Below, one piece after another: positions 34,972 to 41,256 of a stretch of 64,000 bases of DNA. Each line of letters starts with the position of its first letter. Within the stretch, counting starts at the first letter, position 1. Below the pieces are notes generated by a model, which saw only the letters and a list, made by a program, of their open reading frames with translations, was not told the origin of the DNA and did no database searches. The translations under genes and the position numbers were made by a program. Location: NCBI RefSeq assembly GCF_046105845.1, contig NZ_CP151004.1; one strand, written 5' to 3'. This DNA comes from Escherichia coli. GTDB taxonomy: Bacteria > Pseudomonadota > Gammaproteobacteria > Enterobacterales > Enterobacteriaceae.

Positions 34972-36060
34972 TCACGGCAGGCGGTGGCGAGCTTGATAAT
35001 AAGACTGCCAGTGAGCTTCTTTATGTGTGGCGACGCGCTGTTCGAAGTAACGGCGCAGACGCGCGCGATCTTCTTCGTTATCTTTGACGATGGTTCCGGC
35101 AATACAGTCCACCAGGTCGGCAGGCTCCCCCGCGCGATTCGCTAAAAACCAGGCGCGGACACCCACAGCATGGGCCACGTTAACGGCTTCAGCGGTGGAC
35201 ATAATCGCTGTCAGTGTATCCATTGACGTTTTCTTTTCGCCGTTGGCACGCAGATCGCGGAACGTGCGCACCAGTAATTCCAGTACCGCGTCAGGCACTT
35301 TATGCGGAATACCGCTATGGGCCAGCAAACGCGCCGAAGCACTGGCGACCAGTTCGAGCTCCTGGGCGAAATCCATAATCGGAAAGACAGTTTCAAAATC
35401 GAAGCGACGCTTTAGCGCAGCACTCATTTCATTGACGCCGCGATCGCGGGTATTGGCAGTGGCAATAATATTAAAGCCTTCCCGCGCATAGAGCTGACTG
35501 GCTTCACCAGTGAGTTCCGGCACCGTCATTACCCTGTCAGAAAGCATACCTAACAGACAGTCTTGTACTTCCAGCGGTGTACGCGTTATCTCTTCAAAAC
35601 GGACAATTTTGCCGTCGCGCATTCCCTGGTAAAGCGGGGCTGGGACCAGCGCTTCCGTTGACGGACCATGGTTGATAAGCAGGGCGTAGTTCCAGCCGTA
35701 CTTGATTTGATCTTCGGTGGTAGATGCGCCGCCCTGGATGGTTAACCCGGCATCGCCGCTAATAGCGGTTGCCAGTAATTCAGACAGGAGAGATTTTGCG
35801 GTACCCGGTTCCCCCACCAACATCAAACCGCGCCCGGTGGCAAGAGTGACTAACATACGTTCGACAGCGGAGGGACTAATCACCACTTTACGGCTAATAT
35901 TTTGCGCGCTATCGCCAAGGATAAAAGCACGGGCCGCAGGCAAACTTAACTGCCAACCGGGCGGGCAAGGTGCGTTATCATTTTGTTTTAATTTTGCCAG
36001 TTCATCGGCGTATAACACAGCAGCAGGCGGACGCTGCAGATGATTATTCTGCGGTGACAT
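34972..36060 (-). CDS. yehL: MoxR-type AAA+ ATPase YehL
   Basis: Start at MSPQNNHLQRP gives 362 aa; Walker A GEPGTAKS. Confidence 0.9.
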   Translation of the reverse strand: MSPQNNHLQRPPAAVLYADELAKLKQNDNAPCPPGWQLSLPAARAFILGDSAQNISRKVVISPSAVERMLVTLATGRGLMLVGEPGTAKSLLSELLATAISGDAGLTIQGGASTTEDQIKYGWNYALLINHGPSTEALVPAPLYQGMRDGKIVRFEEITRTPLEVQDCLLGMLSDRVMTVPELTGEASQLYAREGFNIIATANTRDRGVNEMSAALKRRFDFETVFPIMDFAQELELVASASARLLAHSGIPHKVPDAVLELLVRTFRDLRANGEKKTSMDTLTAIMSTAEAVNVAHAVGVRAWFLANRAGEPADLVDCIAGTIVKDNEEDRARLRRYFEQRVATHKEAHWQSYYQARHRLP

Positions 36061-36171
36061 ATATTCATCCCTGAAATGTATTAATGAAATAAACGATATT
36101 TTACGCGCAATAAATGTTTTGCGCATTAGTTGTTTGAACGGAAAATATCTGGAAAGCAGATCACAGTAAAT

Positions 36172-36254
36172 AAAAAAACCTGCTGGTGAGGCAGGTTCTT
36201 TTATTTACTATTTTCAGGCCCAACACCGCAGCCTGTGCAACATCGTGTTCCAAC
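36172..36254 (-). ncRNA. Candidate OrzO-like antitoxin sRNA, copy 1
   Basis: Minus-strand TATAAT at 36266-36261 with TTGCAA -35 at 36289-36284 (17-bp spacer); ends at hairpin CCTGCCTCACCAGCAGG followed by TTTTTTT (36195-36172). Confidence 0.45.
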
Positions 36255-36311: not shown

Positions 36312-36492
36312 CCAGACGGTTGGGACGTTGCGCCGGATCGGACCAATTTCAAGTCCTGGCTACCGGACGGGTGGTGCTGCAGGTGGTGCCCTGATCCGGA
36401 GTGCAACATCGTGGTCCAACATACGTAAACCAGTATCGACAGGCAGTGTAAGGGTAAGGTGCTGGTGTTGCGCTCCTTAATAAGGAGAGCGG

Positions 36493-36582
36493 ATGGACAC
36501 GCAGACACAAAAGTTAACCGTGCTCATTGCTGTACTGGAGCTATTAGTGGCTCTGTTACGGTTGATTGATTTGTTGAAGTAA
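36493..36582 (+). CDS. zorO: Type I toxin, ZorO/ZorP family (29 aa), copy 1
   Basis: AGGAGAG Shine-Dalgarno then MDTQTQKLTVLIAVLELLVALLRLIDLLK*; which copy is zorO versus zorP cannot be told from sequence alone. Confidence 0.75.
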   Translation: MDTQTQKLTVLIAVLELLVALLRLIDLLK

Positions 36583-36604
36583 TGGGCAAATTGAAACGCA
36601 TCTA

Positions 36605-36634
36605 AGGGGGAATACCGCTTCCCCCTTTAATAAA
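36605..36634 (+). terminator. Terminator of toxin mRNA, copy 1
   Basis: AGGGGGAA-taccgc-TTCCCCCT stem followed by TTAATAAAAT. Confidence 0.4.
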
Positions 36635-36777
36635 ATGATTACATCTTCCATTAATTCACCTGATAACTTTTTTCTTATTTATAAATTCATCGATTTTATA
36701 ATTAACGTACCATTTCGCCGGGATGTGAATATTTATGGTGGCTATTGGCGAAAAATATCTGGAAAGTAGATCGCAGA

Positions 36778-36862
36778 AAATAAAAGAACCTGCTGGTGAG
36801 GCAGGTTCTTTTATTTACTACTTTGATGTTAAGTTACTGATAGTGCAACATGGCATCTCAAC
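36778..36862 (-). ncRNA. Candidate OrzP-like antitoxin sRNA, copy 2
   Basis: Minus-strand TATAAT at 36874-36869 and TTGCAA at 36897-36892 (17-bp spacer); hairpin at 36789-36805 followed by a U-rich tract. Confidence 0.4.
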
Positions 36863-36891: not shown

Positions 36892-36919
36892 TTGCAATTA
36901 AGATAATGAGATTTATAAT
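36892..36919 (+). promoter_or_regulatory. Sigma70 promoter of toxin mRNA, copy 2
   Basis: TTGCAA-16 bp-TATAAT. Confidence 0.5.
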
Positions 36920-37100
36920 CCTGACTGTTGGGAAGTTGCGCCGGATCGAACCCATTTCAAGTCCTGGCTACCGGACGGGTGGTGCCGCAGGTAGTGCTCT
37001 GATCCGGAGTGCAACATGGCGACTCAACATACGTAAATCAGTATCGACAGGCAGTGTAAGGGTAAGGTGCTGGTGTTGCGCTCCTTAATAAGGAGAGCGG

Positions 37101-37190
37101 ATGGACACGCTGACACAAAAGTTAACCGTGCTCATTGCCGTACTGGAGCTATTAGTGGCTCTGTTACGGTTGATTGATTTGTTGAAGTAA
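37101..37190 (+). CDS. zorP: Type I toxin, ZorO/ZorP family (29 aa), copy 2
   Basis: MDTLTQKLTVLIAVLELLVALLRLIDLLK*; differs from copy 1 only at codon 4 (CTG Leu versus CAG Gln). Confidence 0.75.
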   Translation: MDTLTQKLTVLIAVLELLVALLRLIDLLK

Positions 37191-37209: not shown

Positions 37210-37563
37210 CTAAGGGGGAAAACCGCTTCCCCCTTTAATAAAGTAATATTCTATTAGTTGGTTGAATATATTCTGTAGTTTACGATTAAAAATTGCTATT
37301 ACAGTTTCAGGTGATTCACCTCGTAATTTCCGCTCATCAATACACTCATCTCTTATATAAATCAACGCATCATTTATTAGCGGGTCAGCATCTTCTCGAT
37401 CACGTTGATGAAATGTTGGACGTAGCCGGAATCGCTCCAGTCGATAGACAGAACCTGTAAATAATTCAGAGCGTTTATGGATCTCAAGCCTGAAGGAAAA
37501 CGGCTCTTCAGGTACAGGGGCCTCATAATCGTAAATAGTGATCAGCTCTTTTTGCACGATCAT
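37210..37563 (-). CDS. yehK: Uncharacterised protein YehK
   Basis: 117-aa ORF starting MIVQKELITIYDYEAP; its last 10 codons lie inside the copy-2 terminator hairpin (37213-37242). Confidence 0.7.
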   Translation of the reverse strand: MIVQKELITIYDYEAPVPEEPFSFRLEIHKRSELFTGSVYRLERFRLRPTFHQRDREDADPLINDALIYIRDECIDERKLRGESPETVIAIFNRKLQNIFNQLIEYYFIKGGSGFPP

Positions 37564-37623: not shown

Positions 37624-40600
37624 TTAATGGAAAATAACGTCGGGTGCGCTTAACGCTTCACTCAAATCAAACACATCAAGTTCGGCAAAAGTGACAGATT
37701 TATTGTCACGGTATACACAAAGAGAACGGAAGCTCATTAGCGCTTTGCTATCAACATTGTAGCGGTTAAAACTGGATGAAAACTTAAGGACCAGCCGGTA
37801 CTCGCCCAGGCCATAGACAAATGCGTCCTCATAGCCTGACTCCCAGCCTTTGTATCGCATTCCCATAAGCTGCCCAACGGTAGCGGATTTACCTTCCCAG
37901 CGAGTCAGGCTGTTACTGGTTGACTCGTCAGGCGTGAGCAGCACCGTGCGGCGCGACAACTGGCGAAAAGGCGGCATAATTTCGTAATCGGCAAAAAGCT
38001 GTGCAAATTCACTGCGCATTTCTGCTGTCATTTCTAACGGGTGGGCAATGCCAATCAGAGCATCCGCAGGAAGGTCAATGGGCTCATCCTGCGCATTGCA
38101 GAACTCCCCCTCAGCGGCCACACGAAAGGCGTTGAGTAAACGACGCGGTTCATTTGCCGGATAAACACCCCATATTAATCGCTGAGTAACCAGGCGGGTA
38201 AAGGGATGATTAACAAACAGAGAACGAAAATCTGCCAGCGACCAGCGTCGGATGGTGCGCAGGGCCGTTTCAAGACGCGGGAGCAGGTTTTTGCTCACCT
38301 GAGTAGCATCTTTTTTTAGCCCTTTTAGTCGTGCCAGTGCCTCGGGCGCTTTCAGTTGATCGTCATCGGCGCGCAACCGTGGAACGCTTTTCTGGCGAAC
38401 GTTTTGCTGATCAAAGATAACCGGGTTGAGGTTTTCATCGAAGCGAACGGTAAACTGCCGGGGACCAAAATCAAAACTCAACGCCTGCGGATCATCAAGG
38501 CCCAGTGTTGGGACTAATCTGTCCGCTAACTCTTCCTGGCTTAGCCCGCGATTTTCTGCGACTACCTGAAGAAATTCCGCCGCGTTATCACGTAAGGGGC
38601 GGGATTTCGCCCGTTGCGATATATGATGCAGCTGCATCAGCGCCATATCATTATTCATCAGGGTAAGGATGTTCAGGCCACTGACAGCACGGGCAGATTT
38701 GCCTTCTTGTGGCCAGGCGAGGATCTGTGTCGTCAGATCCCGAGCCGTGCTTTCGTCACCAAAGAGACTTAACGCCAGAAATGCCCAGTTGTCTTTTGCA
38801 GGGGCACCAGCTTGTTGCCAGGCGGTGAAGAGATCCCAGGCAAAAGCTGCGAGCGTTTGTGGTTGGCAAAACGTTTTCAGTTGTTCCAGCCCGCTATAAA
38901 AACGTCCCCCCTGGGTAAAGCGCAGCATTTCGCCGATAATTTCCAGAGCGTCATCGGTAACAGGTTGATTATTAGTGATAAGGCGCGGCCTGGACCACAT
39001 TTGCGGATGCCAGAAATCAGGGGCTTTTGGCATGCGCGCCGGGTAAATTTCCAGCGGGTTCTGGGTAAGTATTTTTTCCAGGGCTGGCCACACATCAGCA
39101 CGATCCCAGCGGTTTGCCACGGTTTGTAGTAATTCGCCATGTCCCTGTTCGTAAAGTAAACGCAGGGCAAATAATGCAGCTTCGCTATTATCGCTGGATT
39201 TAATGAAGACAAGAGGGATAAGTGCAGTAGCCGTATGTTCCGGCCATTGTAAAATCCACTGGCGGGCCAGATCACGCTGCGCCGCGAAACGTCGCCAGAC
39301 GCGGGCAACGGGCAGGGCCAGTTCGGTTGCGCCGAAATTTAAAATTAACGGAAATGTTTCTTTTGGACGATGTGAAAAAGCCAACAGCAGACCTGGTAGA
39401 GCATCCAATCCGAAGATACTGAGAAAATAGTCCTCACCCGCAGACAGATGCTTTTTCTCATTGATACGTAGCCAGAAAGTCAAAGCCATCTCACGCGGCA
39501 ACTGCGCCAATAAATACAGGTTCCAGATACTCTTTTCCCGACGATAGCGTGAGTAGCTGTCATTTTCCCATATGTTAATTAACACTTCTACGTGACCGCT
39601 GCGAAGCGCCTGTTCTGCTAATTGAGCTTCCGGGGAGCTCCAGCCATTCATGATCTCTTCAACCCGCCCTGGGTAGTAATGCCACTGAACAATGAGTGAA
39701 TTGCGTGCAGCATCCAGTTTTCCGGGGAGTATATAATTCAAAAACAGCCATACATCATCTCCAAAACCCAGCTCCTGTAGTACAACTCGTCCACTTTTAT
39801 GTTCCATGCGTTCCGCAAGAGATTCCGTGCTGAAATAACGGGCAGACTCAGTGGCGGCAAGCCTCTCTCGTTCGCCTGGTTGCCAGTAAACTTGCGGCGT
39901 TAATTCGAACGGTGCCAAATCAAGACGTGGAACTGTCATTTTTTTCTTACTACGCCACGGTGGTGAAACGAGGATTTCAGGCAGATTGCTGTTATCGGTG
40001 CCATCAATAACCGGTTTGGGCGGTGCCGATAAATAACTATTCAGCACTGCCCGGGCTTGAGTACTTAACCACGGCATCACTTCTGCTGCCAGTTGTGGCT
40101 GCGATGCCATCAGCGTTTGTAACAGTGTACGCCAGTATTCATCTCGAGCTTTTTGCTGTGCAGGCAGCTTTTTGTCTTCGATGATTGGATAACCAGGGCG
40201 CGCAGGTGGTTCTTTTAGCGCCAGAAGCTCTGCCAGTGCGGCAAGCGTCGCATGGGGGAAATTTTTACTGTATTTAGCTACACGTTGCAGGCTGGGTTTG
40301 TTTTTATCAGCAACTAACAGCAGGGTGCGGATGACCTGCGGATGGTTAATTTGTACCAGCAGACTGCCGCAATCTTCTTTATGGGCATACATTGCCAGGC
40401 GTGGAACGGCTGCCAGTCCTTGTTCGCGCAAAAGGGCAGCGCAGGCCGCGTAGCCGAAGTGGTTTTCATGCGACATGTAGCTGGCTTCCCGATCGCTAAA
40501 TATATCCTGGCTCCAGTAGCGTTCGAGTTTTTTCACCGCTCTGGGGTCATTAGCAACAACTTTTAACCACTCCTTAGAATGAAAATGAGTCCGCGGGCAT

Positions 40601-41256
40601 TCAAGGTCTACCAACTCATTGGCGATTTCTGGTTTTTCCGGGAGGATCAGCGCAATAAAAGGGCGGCGAACTTTGGTTATTCCTGGCAGTGCGGCAATGA
40701 GTTTGTCGGCGCAACGCTGCCAGCTGCTTTCCTCTGCCAGAGAGAGATGCTTACGCAGTCGGAGATCGAATTCGTTATAGGTTTCTGAGCGATAACCATA
40801 GCCATAATCCTCGTCCTGATACTGCAATGTCACTAGCAGAGGATCACTTTCATAACACCGTGCAATAAACTGGCGTGCAATCACCACCTCAGTCGCATAT
40901 TCCAGTCCCTCTTGTTGGACGATTTCGTCGAGCAACTGTTGGCTATCATTTTGCGCGATACAGGCTAGCGCCGCCATTGTCCGGGCCGGAACTGAGGGTT
41001 TGTGTTCTCCGATCAAGTTGATGGCCTGCGTAATGGCCGACTGCCACTCCAGTGAAAAATTTTCATAACGCCAGACAATGTTTTTTTTCTTCTCAGCTTT
41101 TTGTAGCAATTCATCACCCAGTGTCTGGATGAGGCTTTCAGTGATAACAGGCACTGGTTCGCCCGGCCAACTGCGATGGCTGAGCGGCGTTTTGCCTTTT
41201 TTATATTTCAGTTCCACTTGGGCGTTATCCGCCAGCCACGGTAATTCCTTGTCCAT
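37624..41256 (-). CDS. yehI: Large DUF4132-family protein YehI
   Basis: 1210-aa ORF; extensive paralogy with molR (RLRKHLSLAEESSWQRCADKLIAALPGI versus RLRKHLALAEETLWQRCVDKFITALPDI). Confidence 0.93.
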   Translation of the reverse strand: MDKELPWLADNAQVELKYKKGKTPLSHRSWPGEPVPVITESLIQTLGDELLQKAEKKKNIVWRYENFSLEWQSAITQAINLIGEHKPSVPARTMAALACIAQNDSQQLLDEIVQQEGLEYATEVVIARQFIARCYESDPLLVTLQYQDEDYGYGYRSETYNEFDLRLRKHLSLAEESSWQRCADKLIAALPGITKVRRPFIALILPEKPEIANELVDLECPRTHFHSKEWLKVVANDPRAVKKLERYWSQDIFSDREASYMSHENHFGYAACAALLREQGLAAVPRLAMYAHKEDCGSLLVQINHPQVIRTLLLVADKNKPSLQRVAKYSKNFPHATLAALAELLALKEPPARPGYPIIEDKKLPAQQKARDEYWRTLLQTLMASQPQLAAEVMPWLSTQARAVLNSYLSAPPKPVIDGTDNSNLPEILVSPPWRSKKKMTVPRLDLAPFELTPQVYWQPGERERLAATESARYFSTESLAERMEHKSGRVVLQELGFGDDVWLFLNYILPGKLDAARNSLIVQWHYYPGRVEEIMNGWSSPEAQLAEQALRSGHVEVLINIWENDSYSRYRREKSIWNLYLLAQLPREMALTFWLRINEKKHLSAGEDYFLSIFGLDALPGLLLAFSHRPKETFPLILNFGATELALPVARVWRRFAAQRDLARQWILQWPEHTATALIPLVFIKSSDNSEAALFALRLLYEQGHGELLQTVANRWDRADVWPALEKILTQNPLEIYPARMPKAPDFWHPQMWSRPRLITNNQPVTDDALEIIGEMLRFTQGGRFYSGLEQLKTFCQPQTLAAFAWDLFTAWQQAGAPAKDNWAFLALSLFGDESTARDLTTQILAWPQEGKSARAVSGLNILTLMNNDMALMQLHHISQRAKSRPLRDNAAEFLQVVAENRGLSQEELADRLVPTLGLDDPQALSFDFGPRQFTVRFDENLNPVIFDQQNVRQKSVPRLRADDDQLKAPEALARLKGLKKDATQVSKNLLPRLETALRTIRRWSLADFRSLFVNHPFTRLVTQRLIWGVYPANEPRRLLNAFRVAAEGEFCNAQDEPIDLPADALIGIAHPLEMTAEMRSEFAQLFADYEIMPPFRQLSRRTVLLTPDESTSNSLTRWEGKSATVGQLMGMRYKGWESGYEDAFVYGLGEYRLVLKFSSSFNRYNVDSKALMSFRSLCVYRDNKSVTFAELDVFDLSEALSAPDVIFH

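Follow-up and report, generated by a model that had tools for sequence, protein, structure and literature searches.

In the Escherichia coli contig NZ_CP151004.1, the small gene yehK runs to 117 codons and ends inside a hairpin that follows a toxin gene on the opposite strand, whereas K-12 YehK is 105 aa. The question is how the gene came by its additional codons. We analyzed a 64,000-nucleotide stretch of this contig (the window, to which all coordinates refer), for which an initial annotation had proposed that an insertion of toxin-antitoxin repeats replaced the original 3' end of yehK. Our analysis instead favors, with a probability of roughly 0.85, a reading in which the known zor-orz locus lies beside a yehK allele that has lost its stop by two substitutions, giving a 117-aa YehK encoded through a hairpin common to both genes.

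Results

The yehK reading frame in the window

The features of yehK and its neighbors are the following.

37210..37563, minus strand: yehK, 117-codon stop-loss allele (open reading frame list and annotation)
37213..37245, minus strand: 11-codon extension Y107-P117 (YFIKGGSGFPP), antisense to the zorO 3' UTR and hairpin
37243: causal SNP, G here (TAC, Tyr), C (TAG, stop) in the 106-aa allele and all outgroups
37246..37248, minus strand: ancestral position of the first stop codon, TAT (Tyr106) in the window
37624..41256, minus strand: yehI (DUF4132 protein), encoded on the yehK strand and 60 nt upstream of that gene
34972..36060, minus strand: yehL (AAA-type ATPase), beyond the zor-orz units as seen from yehK

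Translation of the reading frame gives a 117-aa protein with the C-terminal end NQLIEYYFIKGGSGFPP (in a longer extract, NRKLQNIFNQLIEYYFIKGGSGFPP) directly before the stop codon. Read directly on the minus strand, in order of increasing coordinate, the codons are the TAG stop (37210-37212), Pro-Pro-Phe-Gly-Ser-Gly-Gly-Lys (37213-37236, on the hairpin), Ile-Phe (37237-37242), Tyr (TAC, 37243-37245), Tyr (TAT, 37246-37248), and Glu (37249-37251). The codon reading over 37210-37236 agrees with the initial annotation that the frame ends in the second copy of a repeated hairpin and that its last codons are the reverse complement of that hairpin, and the two lengths it compared, 117 and 105 codons, are likewise confirmed. 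The extension YFIKGGSGFPP thus ends in Pro-Pro, followed by the TAG at 37210-37212.

The gene sits between yehI and yehL, and its product is 93% identical to K-12 YehK over the residues common to both (1-105). The native C terminus is retained to residue 105 (…NIFNQLIE here versus …NIFNQEIE in K-12); the tail is added after it, and nothing has been replaced. The earlier description of the tail as repeat derived therefore stands insofar as the tail is antisense to the Zor 3' region and hairpin, but not in its claim that the original end of yehK was lost. In a 14-sequence alignment, YFIKGGSGFPP occurs in no other YehK lineage, and at 117 aa the protein falls outside the family range of 96-106 aa, in which translation stops at codon 106 or 107. 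An 11-codon run free of stops is expected more often than not once a stop has been lost, and the extension is not statistically unusual. RefSeq names the 117-aa allele "hypothetical protein" rather than "protein YehK"; a near-identical entry is WP_063086605.1.

Two zor-orz units lie between yehL and yehK

The DNA between yehL and yehK contains two repeat units, with the features below.

36172..36247, minus strand: orz antitoxin sRNA gene, unit 1 (Rfam RF02083, 101.3 bits; gathering score 60)
36493..36582, plus strand: zor toxin ORF, unit 1 (MDTQTQK…, Leu4Gln variant)
36604..36627: copy of the hairpin after unit 1, followed by the tail TTTAATAAA, together 36604-36636
36637..36748, minus strand: inter-unit spacer, decayed remains of a yehK copy (its middle and 3' part; protein and DNA alignment)
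36782..36855, minus strand: orz antitoxin sRNA gene, unit 2 (Rfam RF02083 OrzO-P, 90.2 bits; gathering score 60)
36892..36919, plus strand: zor promoter, unit 2 (TTGCAA-16-TATAAT)
37101..37190, plus strand: zor toxin ORF, unit 2 (29 aa, hydrophobic, MDTLTQKLTVLIAVLELLVALLRLIDLLK)
37212..37235: hairpin with a 9-bp stem and 6-nt loop, a predicted intrinsic terminator between the convergent yehK and zorO

By sequence, the two units are identified as the known tandem zor-orz locus, which encodes a toxin-antitoxin system of type I. The unit 2 toxin is identical to the O157:H7 copy adjoining yehK, ZorO (ZorO/ZorP naming as in PMC11264685), and toxicity of Zor and its repression by Orz have been shown for the identical ZorO of EDL933 (PMC3919570). 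A promoter scan found four TTGCAA-16/17-TATAAT sites at the expected places, back to back in each unit, with hexamers that agree with Table 3 of PMC11264685. In unit 2, the distance from the end of the -10 box (36919) to the ATG (37101) implies a 5' UTR of ~174 nt; the published zor 5' UTR is 174 nt (PMC5397157). Each Orz pairs with its cognate zor UTR with at most one mismatch, over 21 nt in unit 2 (37008-37028) and 20 nt in unit 1 (36401-36420). This cognate pairing lies 72-93 nt upstream of the ATG, starting at 92-93 nt, the position described in PMC2887945, and non-cognate pairing extends over only 14 nt. The orz genes have a terminator of their own, a hairpin and T-run at 36177-36197 with a near-identical copy in unit 2 (inverted repeat arms 36775-36793/36801-36819).

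Several further features of the locus were observed. The unit 1 toxin, MDTQTQKL… (Leu4Gln), matches none of ZorO, ZorP (T3S), and ZorQ (A20S), the variants named in PMC11264685. The orz terminator hairpin (36165-36209 and 36775-36819) is nearly symmetric, with A/T runs on both sides; the terminator scan placed it on the plus strand, although orz is on the minus strand, and it may act in both directions. The zor-orz locus adjoins yehK in all three non-coli genomes, Escherichia sp. E1V33, Escherichia sp. MOD1-EC7003, and Escherichia whittamii. E. whittamii shows at least two copies of zor; the zor hosts in the literature searched are E. coli, Shigella, and Escherichia fergusonii only.

A hairpin common to zorO and yehK

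A repeat search, a terminator scan, and RNA folding of both strands converged on the hairpin AAGGGGGAA (37212-37220)-AACCGC-TTCCCCCTT (37227-37235). As the initial annotation had noted, the same hairpin follows unit 1 (36604-36627); the homology between the two units ends exactly at 37242/37243. The calculated folding energy is about -14 kcal/mol for the unit 1 hairpin alone and -17.8 to -18.8 kcal/mol for unit 2 windows, which include extra flanking pairs. The hairpin begins 21 nt after the zor toxin ORF and was ancestrally 6 nt from the yehK stop. Across 24 copies from 16 sequences (15 loci and the window), the stem is unbroken in every one: a single A-to-G stem change keeps a G-U pair, and most of the variation is held by the loop.

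The stem of 9-10 bp includes five G-C pairs. On the yehK strand its tail, AGTTGCGTTT, passes a simple terminator scan; on the zor strand the tail TAATAAAGTA fails it, and the TTTAATAAA that follows the stem is T-poor. Bidirectional intrinsic terminators common to convergent genes are a general bacterial feature, known from Term-seq and SMRT-Cappable-seq work. Judged by sequence, this hairpin is probably such a terminator, acting on both yehK and zorO. The zor literature searched (including PMC2887945, PMC3919570, and PMC11264685) makes no mention of zorO 3' end mapping, of a terminator, or of yehK; PMC2887945 calls the zor-orz site the yehI-yehL intergenic region, leaving yehK unmentioned.

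The initial annotation had also proposed a convergent overlap between yehK and the toxin mRNA. Only 19 nt separate the stop codons of the two genes (37190 and 37210), and the yehK coding region would overlap the zorO 3' UTR, as the annotation supposed, if zorO transcripts reach the hairpin.

The SNP at 37243 lies 8 nt outside the stem and therefore leaves hairpin, zorO ORF, and orz genes unchanged.

The junction between yehK and the hairpin exists in several alleles

We compared the junction in 14 E. coli loci and in three outgroup loci (E. whittamii, Escherichia sp. E1V33, and Escherichia sp. MOD1-EC7003) found by scanning species-representative genomes. Read on the yehK strand, the junctions are the following.

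E. whittamii: …CAA ATA GAA TAA TAG TTTATT AAAGGGGG…; YehK 105 aa
E. coli 673 and EC43: …CTA ATA GAA TAT TAG TTTATT AAAGGGGG…; YehK 106 aa
Window, CFSAN018748, and 730V1: …CTA ATA GAA TAT TAC TTTATT AAAGGGGG…; YehK 117 aa
E. coli 23CRST032: …GAA ATA GAA AAA TAG C TTTATT AAAGGGGG…; YehK 106 aa
O157:H7, UTI89, ATCC BAA-2469, and E1V33: …GAA TAA TA[ERIC or remnant]TA GC TTT(A/C)TT AAAGGGGG…; YehK 105 aa where intact
K-12 and B strains: …GAA TAA TATACTCTAAATAATTC, followed directly by the zor promoter region and orzP; YehK 105 aa

At the junction the window differs from the 106-aa allele by a single base, G versus C at 37243. At codon 106, K-12, O157:H7, E. whittamii, and Escherichia sp. E1V33 have TAA, whereas a third E. 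coli haplotype has AAA. The TAG at codon 107 also occurs in the EIEK haplotype, and in ERIC-bearing haplotypes the element sits in its TA. Since every other haplotype class and the outgroups carry TAG, or an ERIC-split TA, at codon 107, the G allele is derived; outgroup comparison at this one site thus indicates TAG as the ancestral state and TAC as the derived one. By the same comparison, the ancestral Escherichia layout appears to be yehK, tandem stops TAA TAG, six bases, the hairpin, and the convergent zor gene. The stop loss is an ordinary derived polymorphism of yehK.

The polarity could in principle be reversed, with a long YehK ancestral and the 105- and 106-aa forms arising by nonsense mutation. 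The frame through the hairpin is open in every inspected copy and the TAG on its far side is conserved, as this would predict, but that TAG lies in conserved zor 3' UTR sequence. Moreover, a stop at codon 106 and/or 107 is present in three outgroup species or lineages and in three further classes of E. coli haplotype, the E. fergusonii, Escherichia albertii, and Escherichia marmotae proteins are 96-106 aa long, and the long form is seen in E. coli only, where it is linked to E95K. We consider an ancestral long form extremely improbable.

Under the favored order of events, yehK would first have changed from TAA to TAT, giving a YehK of 106 aa, and a second substitution, TAG to TAC at 37243, would then have produced the 117-aa form. 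E95K is present in all inspected 117-aa forms with the same tail and absent from the 106-aa forms, a linkage that suggests one origin of the 3' haplotype and its later recombination onto different yehK 5' halves. The 117-aa allele occurs on at least two yehK 5' backgrounds (the window versus 730V1); these need recombination or recurrence and could equally hint at selection.

Frequencies of the junction alleles

A 551-nt query spanning the junction has matches in 5,235 of 5,426 complete E. coli genomes. With a 60-nt query centered on the SNP (at least 99% identity), the G junction is found in up to 228 of the 5,426, a count that may take in partial alignments and for which cross-checking of the G and C queries gives a lower bound of ~180. 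The 117-aa YehK is thus encoded in ~180-230 genomes, or 3-4%; PCN033, AW1.7, and APEC O2-211 are among the strains with the G allele. Among the matches listed, 60 G-allele genomes show 60/60 identity, all with an intact coding sequence annotated "hypothetical protein." The C junction, queried in the same way, is exact in 482 of 5,426 genomes, all annotated yehK. Compact junctions of the EIEK type occur in ~700 genomes and those of the LIEY type in ~710. The remaining ~3,800 genomes have ERIC forms or the K-12-type deletion, an estimate made by subtraction from ~5235, as a 60-nt ERIC-junction query overlapped too much common yehK sequence to discriminate these classes.

At the protein level, the exact window YehK is present on eight contigs of a large public protein collection, and a sister 117-aa form with a K-12-like N terminus (P0003) on at least 1,000. 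A sequencing error at 37243 was considered and ruled out, as the allele recurs in ~200 complete genomes.

K-12 carries a deletion derivative of the locus, not an empty site

The K-12 intergenic region retains the orz gene (orzP), both promoters, and ~28 nt of the zor 5' UTR; the rest is lost, and directly after the zor UTR comes the right-hand end of an ERIC element, which lies 17 nt from the yehK TAA (locus L001 1483-1499). This "orz-only" state has been published: MG1655 expresses OrzPmg and has 27-29 nt of the zor UTR left (PMC11264685). Because orzP, the zor promoter, and the start of the zor UTR are retained, K-12 is not an empty site but a deletion derivative.

This bears directly on the proposal that toxin-antitoxin repeats were inserted into a K-12-like site and replaced the 3' end of yehK. 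In its favor, K-12 and B strains are without zor genes, have a 105-aa YehK, and become similar to the window only from ~37239-37247. However, the same K-12 remnants of orzP, zor promoter, and first part of the zor UTR (PMC11264685) count against it, as do the intact native C terminus up to residue 105 and the same compact layout in E. whittamii. Strains with the locus at the same place encode YehK of normal length (O157:H7, 105 aa; 673 and EC43, 106 aa; E. whittamii, 105 aa), which argues against the insertion as the cause of the long frame. The initial annotation had asked whether strains lacking the repeats have an identical YehK end; taken literally, those strains do not share the stop of the window, yet with K-12 no empty site, the informative comparison is among locus-bearing strains. 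The allele series already refutes the insertion, and we leave it next to no probability.

A relic of yehK between the two units also argues against the insertion. The spacer is 112 nt long, and the relic was noted in the O157:H7 and E. whittamii loci as well. In its O157 version (L004 955-1075) it translates as …YKIDEFINKNELYDELIKTVIILL… and aligns with YehK 69-95 (YIRDEFIDERKLRGESPETVIAIF), with a BLASTP E value of 5e-4 in a single comparison; in local alignment of the spacer DNA with yehK nt 179-224, the score was reached by none of 1000 shuffles. It follows that the segment duplicated in tandem originally took in a part of yehK along with the hairpin, zor, and orz, and that yehK and the hairpin were neighbors before the duplication. 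A coding frame common to the tail and to unit 1 was considered and dropped, as the spacer relic reads the hairpin in a different frame.

ERIC/IRU elements are 127-bp repeats (PMC2229807). In most E. coli, one such element, or a shortened or expanded form of it, separates the yehK TAA from the hairpin. The insertion point is the TA of the second yehK stop (TAA TA|G), with the TA duplicated, and the ends are 7-bp terminal inverted repeats, TATACTC/GAGTATA (loci L004 1597-1653, L009, and L010). Two 4.83-Mb records labelled "DH5alpha" (NZ_CP026085.1 and NZ_CM135829.1) carry a complete compact hairpin-yehK junction, which is missing from K-12 derivatives; they are probably not K-12 derivatives.

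Constraint on yehK and its decay

YehK homologues were found only in Escherichia, and scans of Pfam and NCBIfam with YehK-117 and both Zor peptides returned no family, even at E = 1. An AlphaFold2 model built from the 14-sequence alignment has a mean pLDDT of 53 and a pTM of 0.34; it hints that residues 85-110 may be helical and 111-117 unstructured. The extreme C terminus differs between species (…EIE, …QIEK, …QIEL, …NRKI, …IFN). Against E. whittamii and other deep lineages, dN/dS is ~0.2 at a dS of ~0.5, and an alignment of 14 sequences has 38 invariant columns out of 105. These values are signs that yehK is a real coding gene with past purifying selection on its protein.

If yehK were not expressed as protein, the end of its ORF would be irrelevant. 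The lack of a Pfam or NCBIfam family, the confinement to Escherichia, the pLDDT of 53, and frequent pseudogenization are consistent with this, but dN/dS and the invariant columns speak against it, making it a rather unlikely reading.

The gene is decaying in several lineages. It is frameshifted, with a stop after residue 61 or 54, in UPEC 26-1, ATCC BAA-2469, UTI89, and PD23, and SCU-105, CB7286, and Escherichia sp. MOD1-EC7003 have a 5-codon in-frame deletion (…TFNDADP…). In rare single-contig variants (P0018, P0026, and P0030), a different frame leads beyond the hairpin and across the complete zor ORF in antisense (…YSPLDAFQFARYFNKSINRNRATN…); frameshifts or misassembly at the hairpin's G/C runs are the probable cause.

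Predicted consequences of the stop loss

In the 117-aa allele, ribosomes would proceed 11 codons over the whole hairpin and halt at the TAG that overlaps its far base. The outcome would be a disordered tail on the poorly constrained C terminus of YehK. The last two residues before the stop, encoded by CCC CCT TAG (37218-37210, minus strand), are Pro-Pro, which is the YbeL-PP motif; a C-terminal Pro-Pro interferes with the termination of translation in every genetic context examined and leads to ssrA tagging (PMC3834316). Given this match, a lower level of YehK is a reasonable prediction: termination at Pro-Pro-UAG would be inefficient, with some tmRNA tagging and hence somewhat less YehK. The phenotypic effect of the allele is most likely small, and the allele is probably neutral or slightly harmful.

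A larger consequence can be imagined, in which the extension is functional: a paused ribosome would unfold the terminator, and read-through antisense to zorO would couple yehI-yehK to the stability or translation of the toxin mRNA. The yehK stop overlaps the last base of the stem 19 nt from the zorO stop, Pro-Pro-stop stalls ribosomes (PMC3834316), and the allele has an appreciable frequency on more than one yehK background. Still, in the 106-aa allele only 6 nt separate the stop from the stem, so that a ribosome terminating there already sits on some of the hairpin, and the two alleles may differ little; in many lineages, yehK has also suffered frameshifts or internal deletions. No RNA antisense to the zor coding region or 3' UTR was detected in O157:H7 (PMC2887945), although that strain has a short allele. 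We regard a functional extension as quite unlikely, and a 117-aa allele working as a translation-dependent anti-terminator, with the paused ribosome on the hairpin and read-through antisense to zorO mRNA, as very unlikely. Were it true, yehI-yehK expression would add a second, cis-antisense layer of toxin control, lacking in the 105- and 106-aa alleles.

Discussion

What a few percent of E. coli genomes encode beside zorO as a 117-aa "hypothetical protein" is YehK after the loss of its stop codon. The main use of this result is in annotation and in reading the zor-orz/yehK locus, and it carries little weight for biology. The comparison also shows K-12 to be a deletion derivative and points to the compact yehK-hairpin-zor arrangement as ancestral in the genus. 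Just past the zorO hairpin, strains are of three types: some have an ERIC element, some a compact junction at which yehK stops, and some a compact junction at which translation passes on through the hairpin; these three types matter to work on zorO 3' end formation or antisense transcription at this site.

The closest known system is the zorO-orzO/zorP-orzP locus of O157:H7 EDL933 (Fozo et al. 2010, PMC2887945; Wen et al. 2014, PMC3919570; mSystems 2024, PMC11264685). It occupies the same site, from yehL to yehK/yehI, and like the window has two tandem units with an identical ZorO in unit 2 and divergent Orz sRNAs, the same promoter hexamers, the pairing site in a ~174-nt 5' UTR, and a hairpin after each toxin ORF. 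The two differ in the unit 1 toxin, ZorP in O157:H7 and the Leu4Gln variant here, and at the junction, where in O157:H7 an ERIC remnant of 57 bp separates the hairpin from yehK and YehK is 105 aa long, whereas the window has a compact junction and a lost stop. In the orz-only locus of K-12, by comparison, a deletion took the toxin, the hairpin, and most of the ERIC element, whereas the locus in the window is complete. ERIC elements are absent from the window, which keeps the ERIC-free ancestral junction, and because no element intervenes, the stop loss runs straight into the hairpin.

The hairpin resembles bidirectional terminators in being a single symmetric, G+C-rich structure between convergent ORFs with U-containing tails on both strands. 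It departs from them in that one ORF is translated across the whole of it, and its role as a terminator is a prediction for both strands. The new C terminus of YehK-117 resembles the YbeL-PP model (PMC3834316) in consisting of Pro-Pro and a stop, UAG in this case, and is predicted to stall. In its origin, the allele is like other stop-loss extension alleles, in which a stop codon is removed by point mutation and the protein gains a short tail from the 3' flanking sequence.
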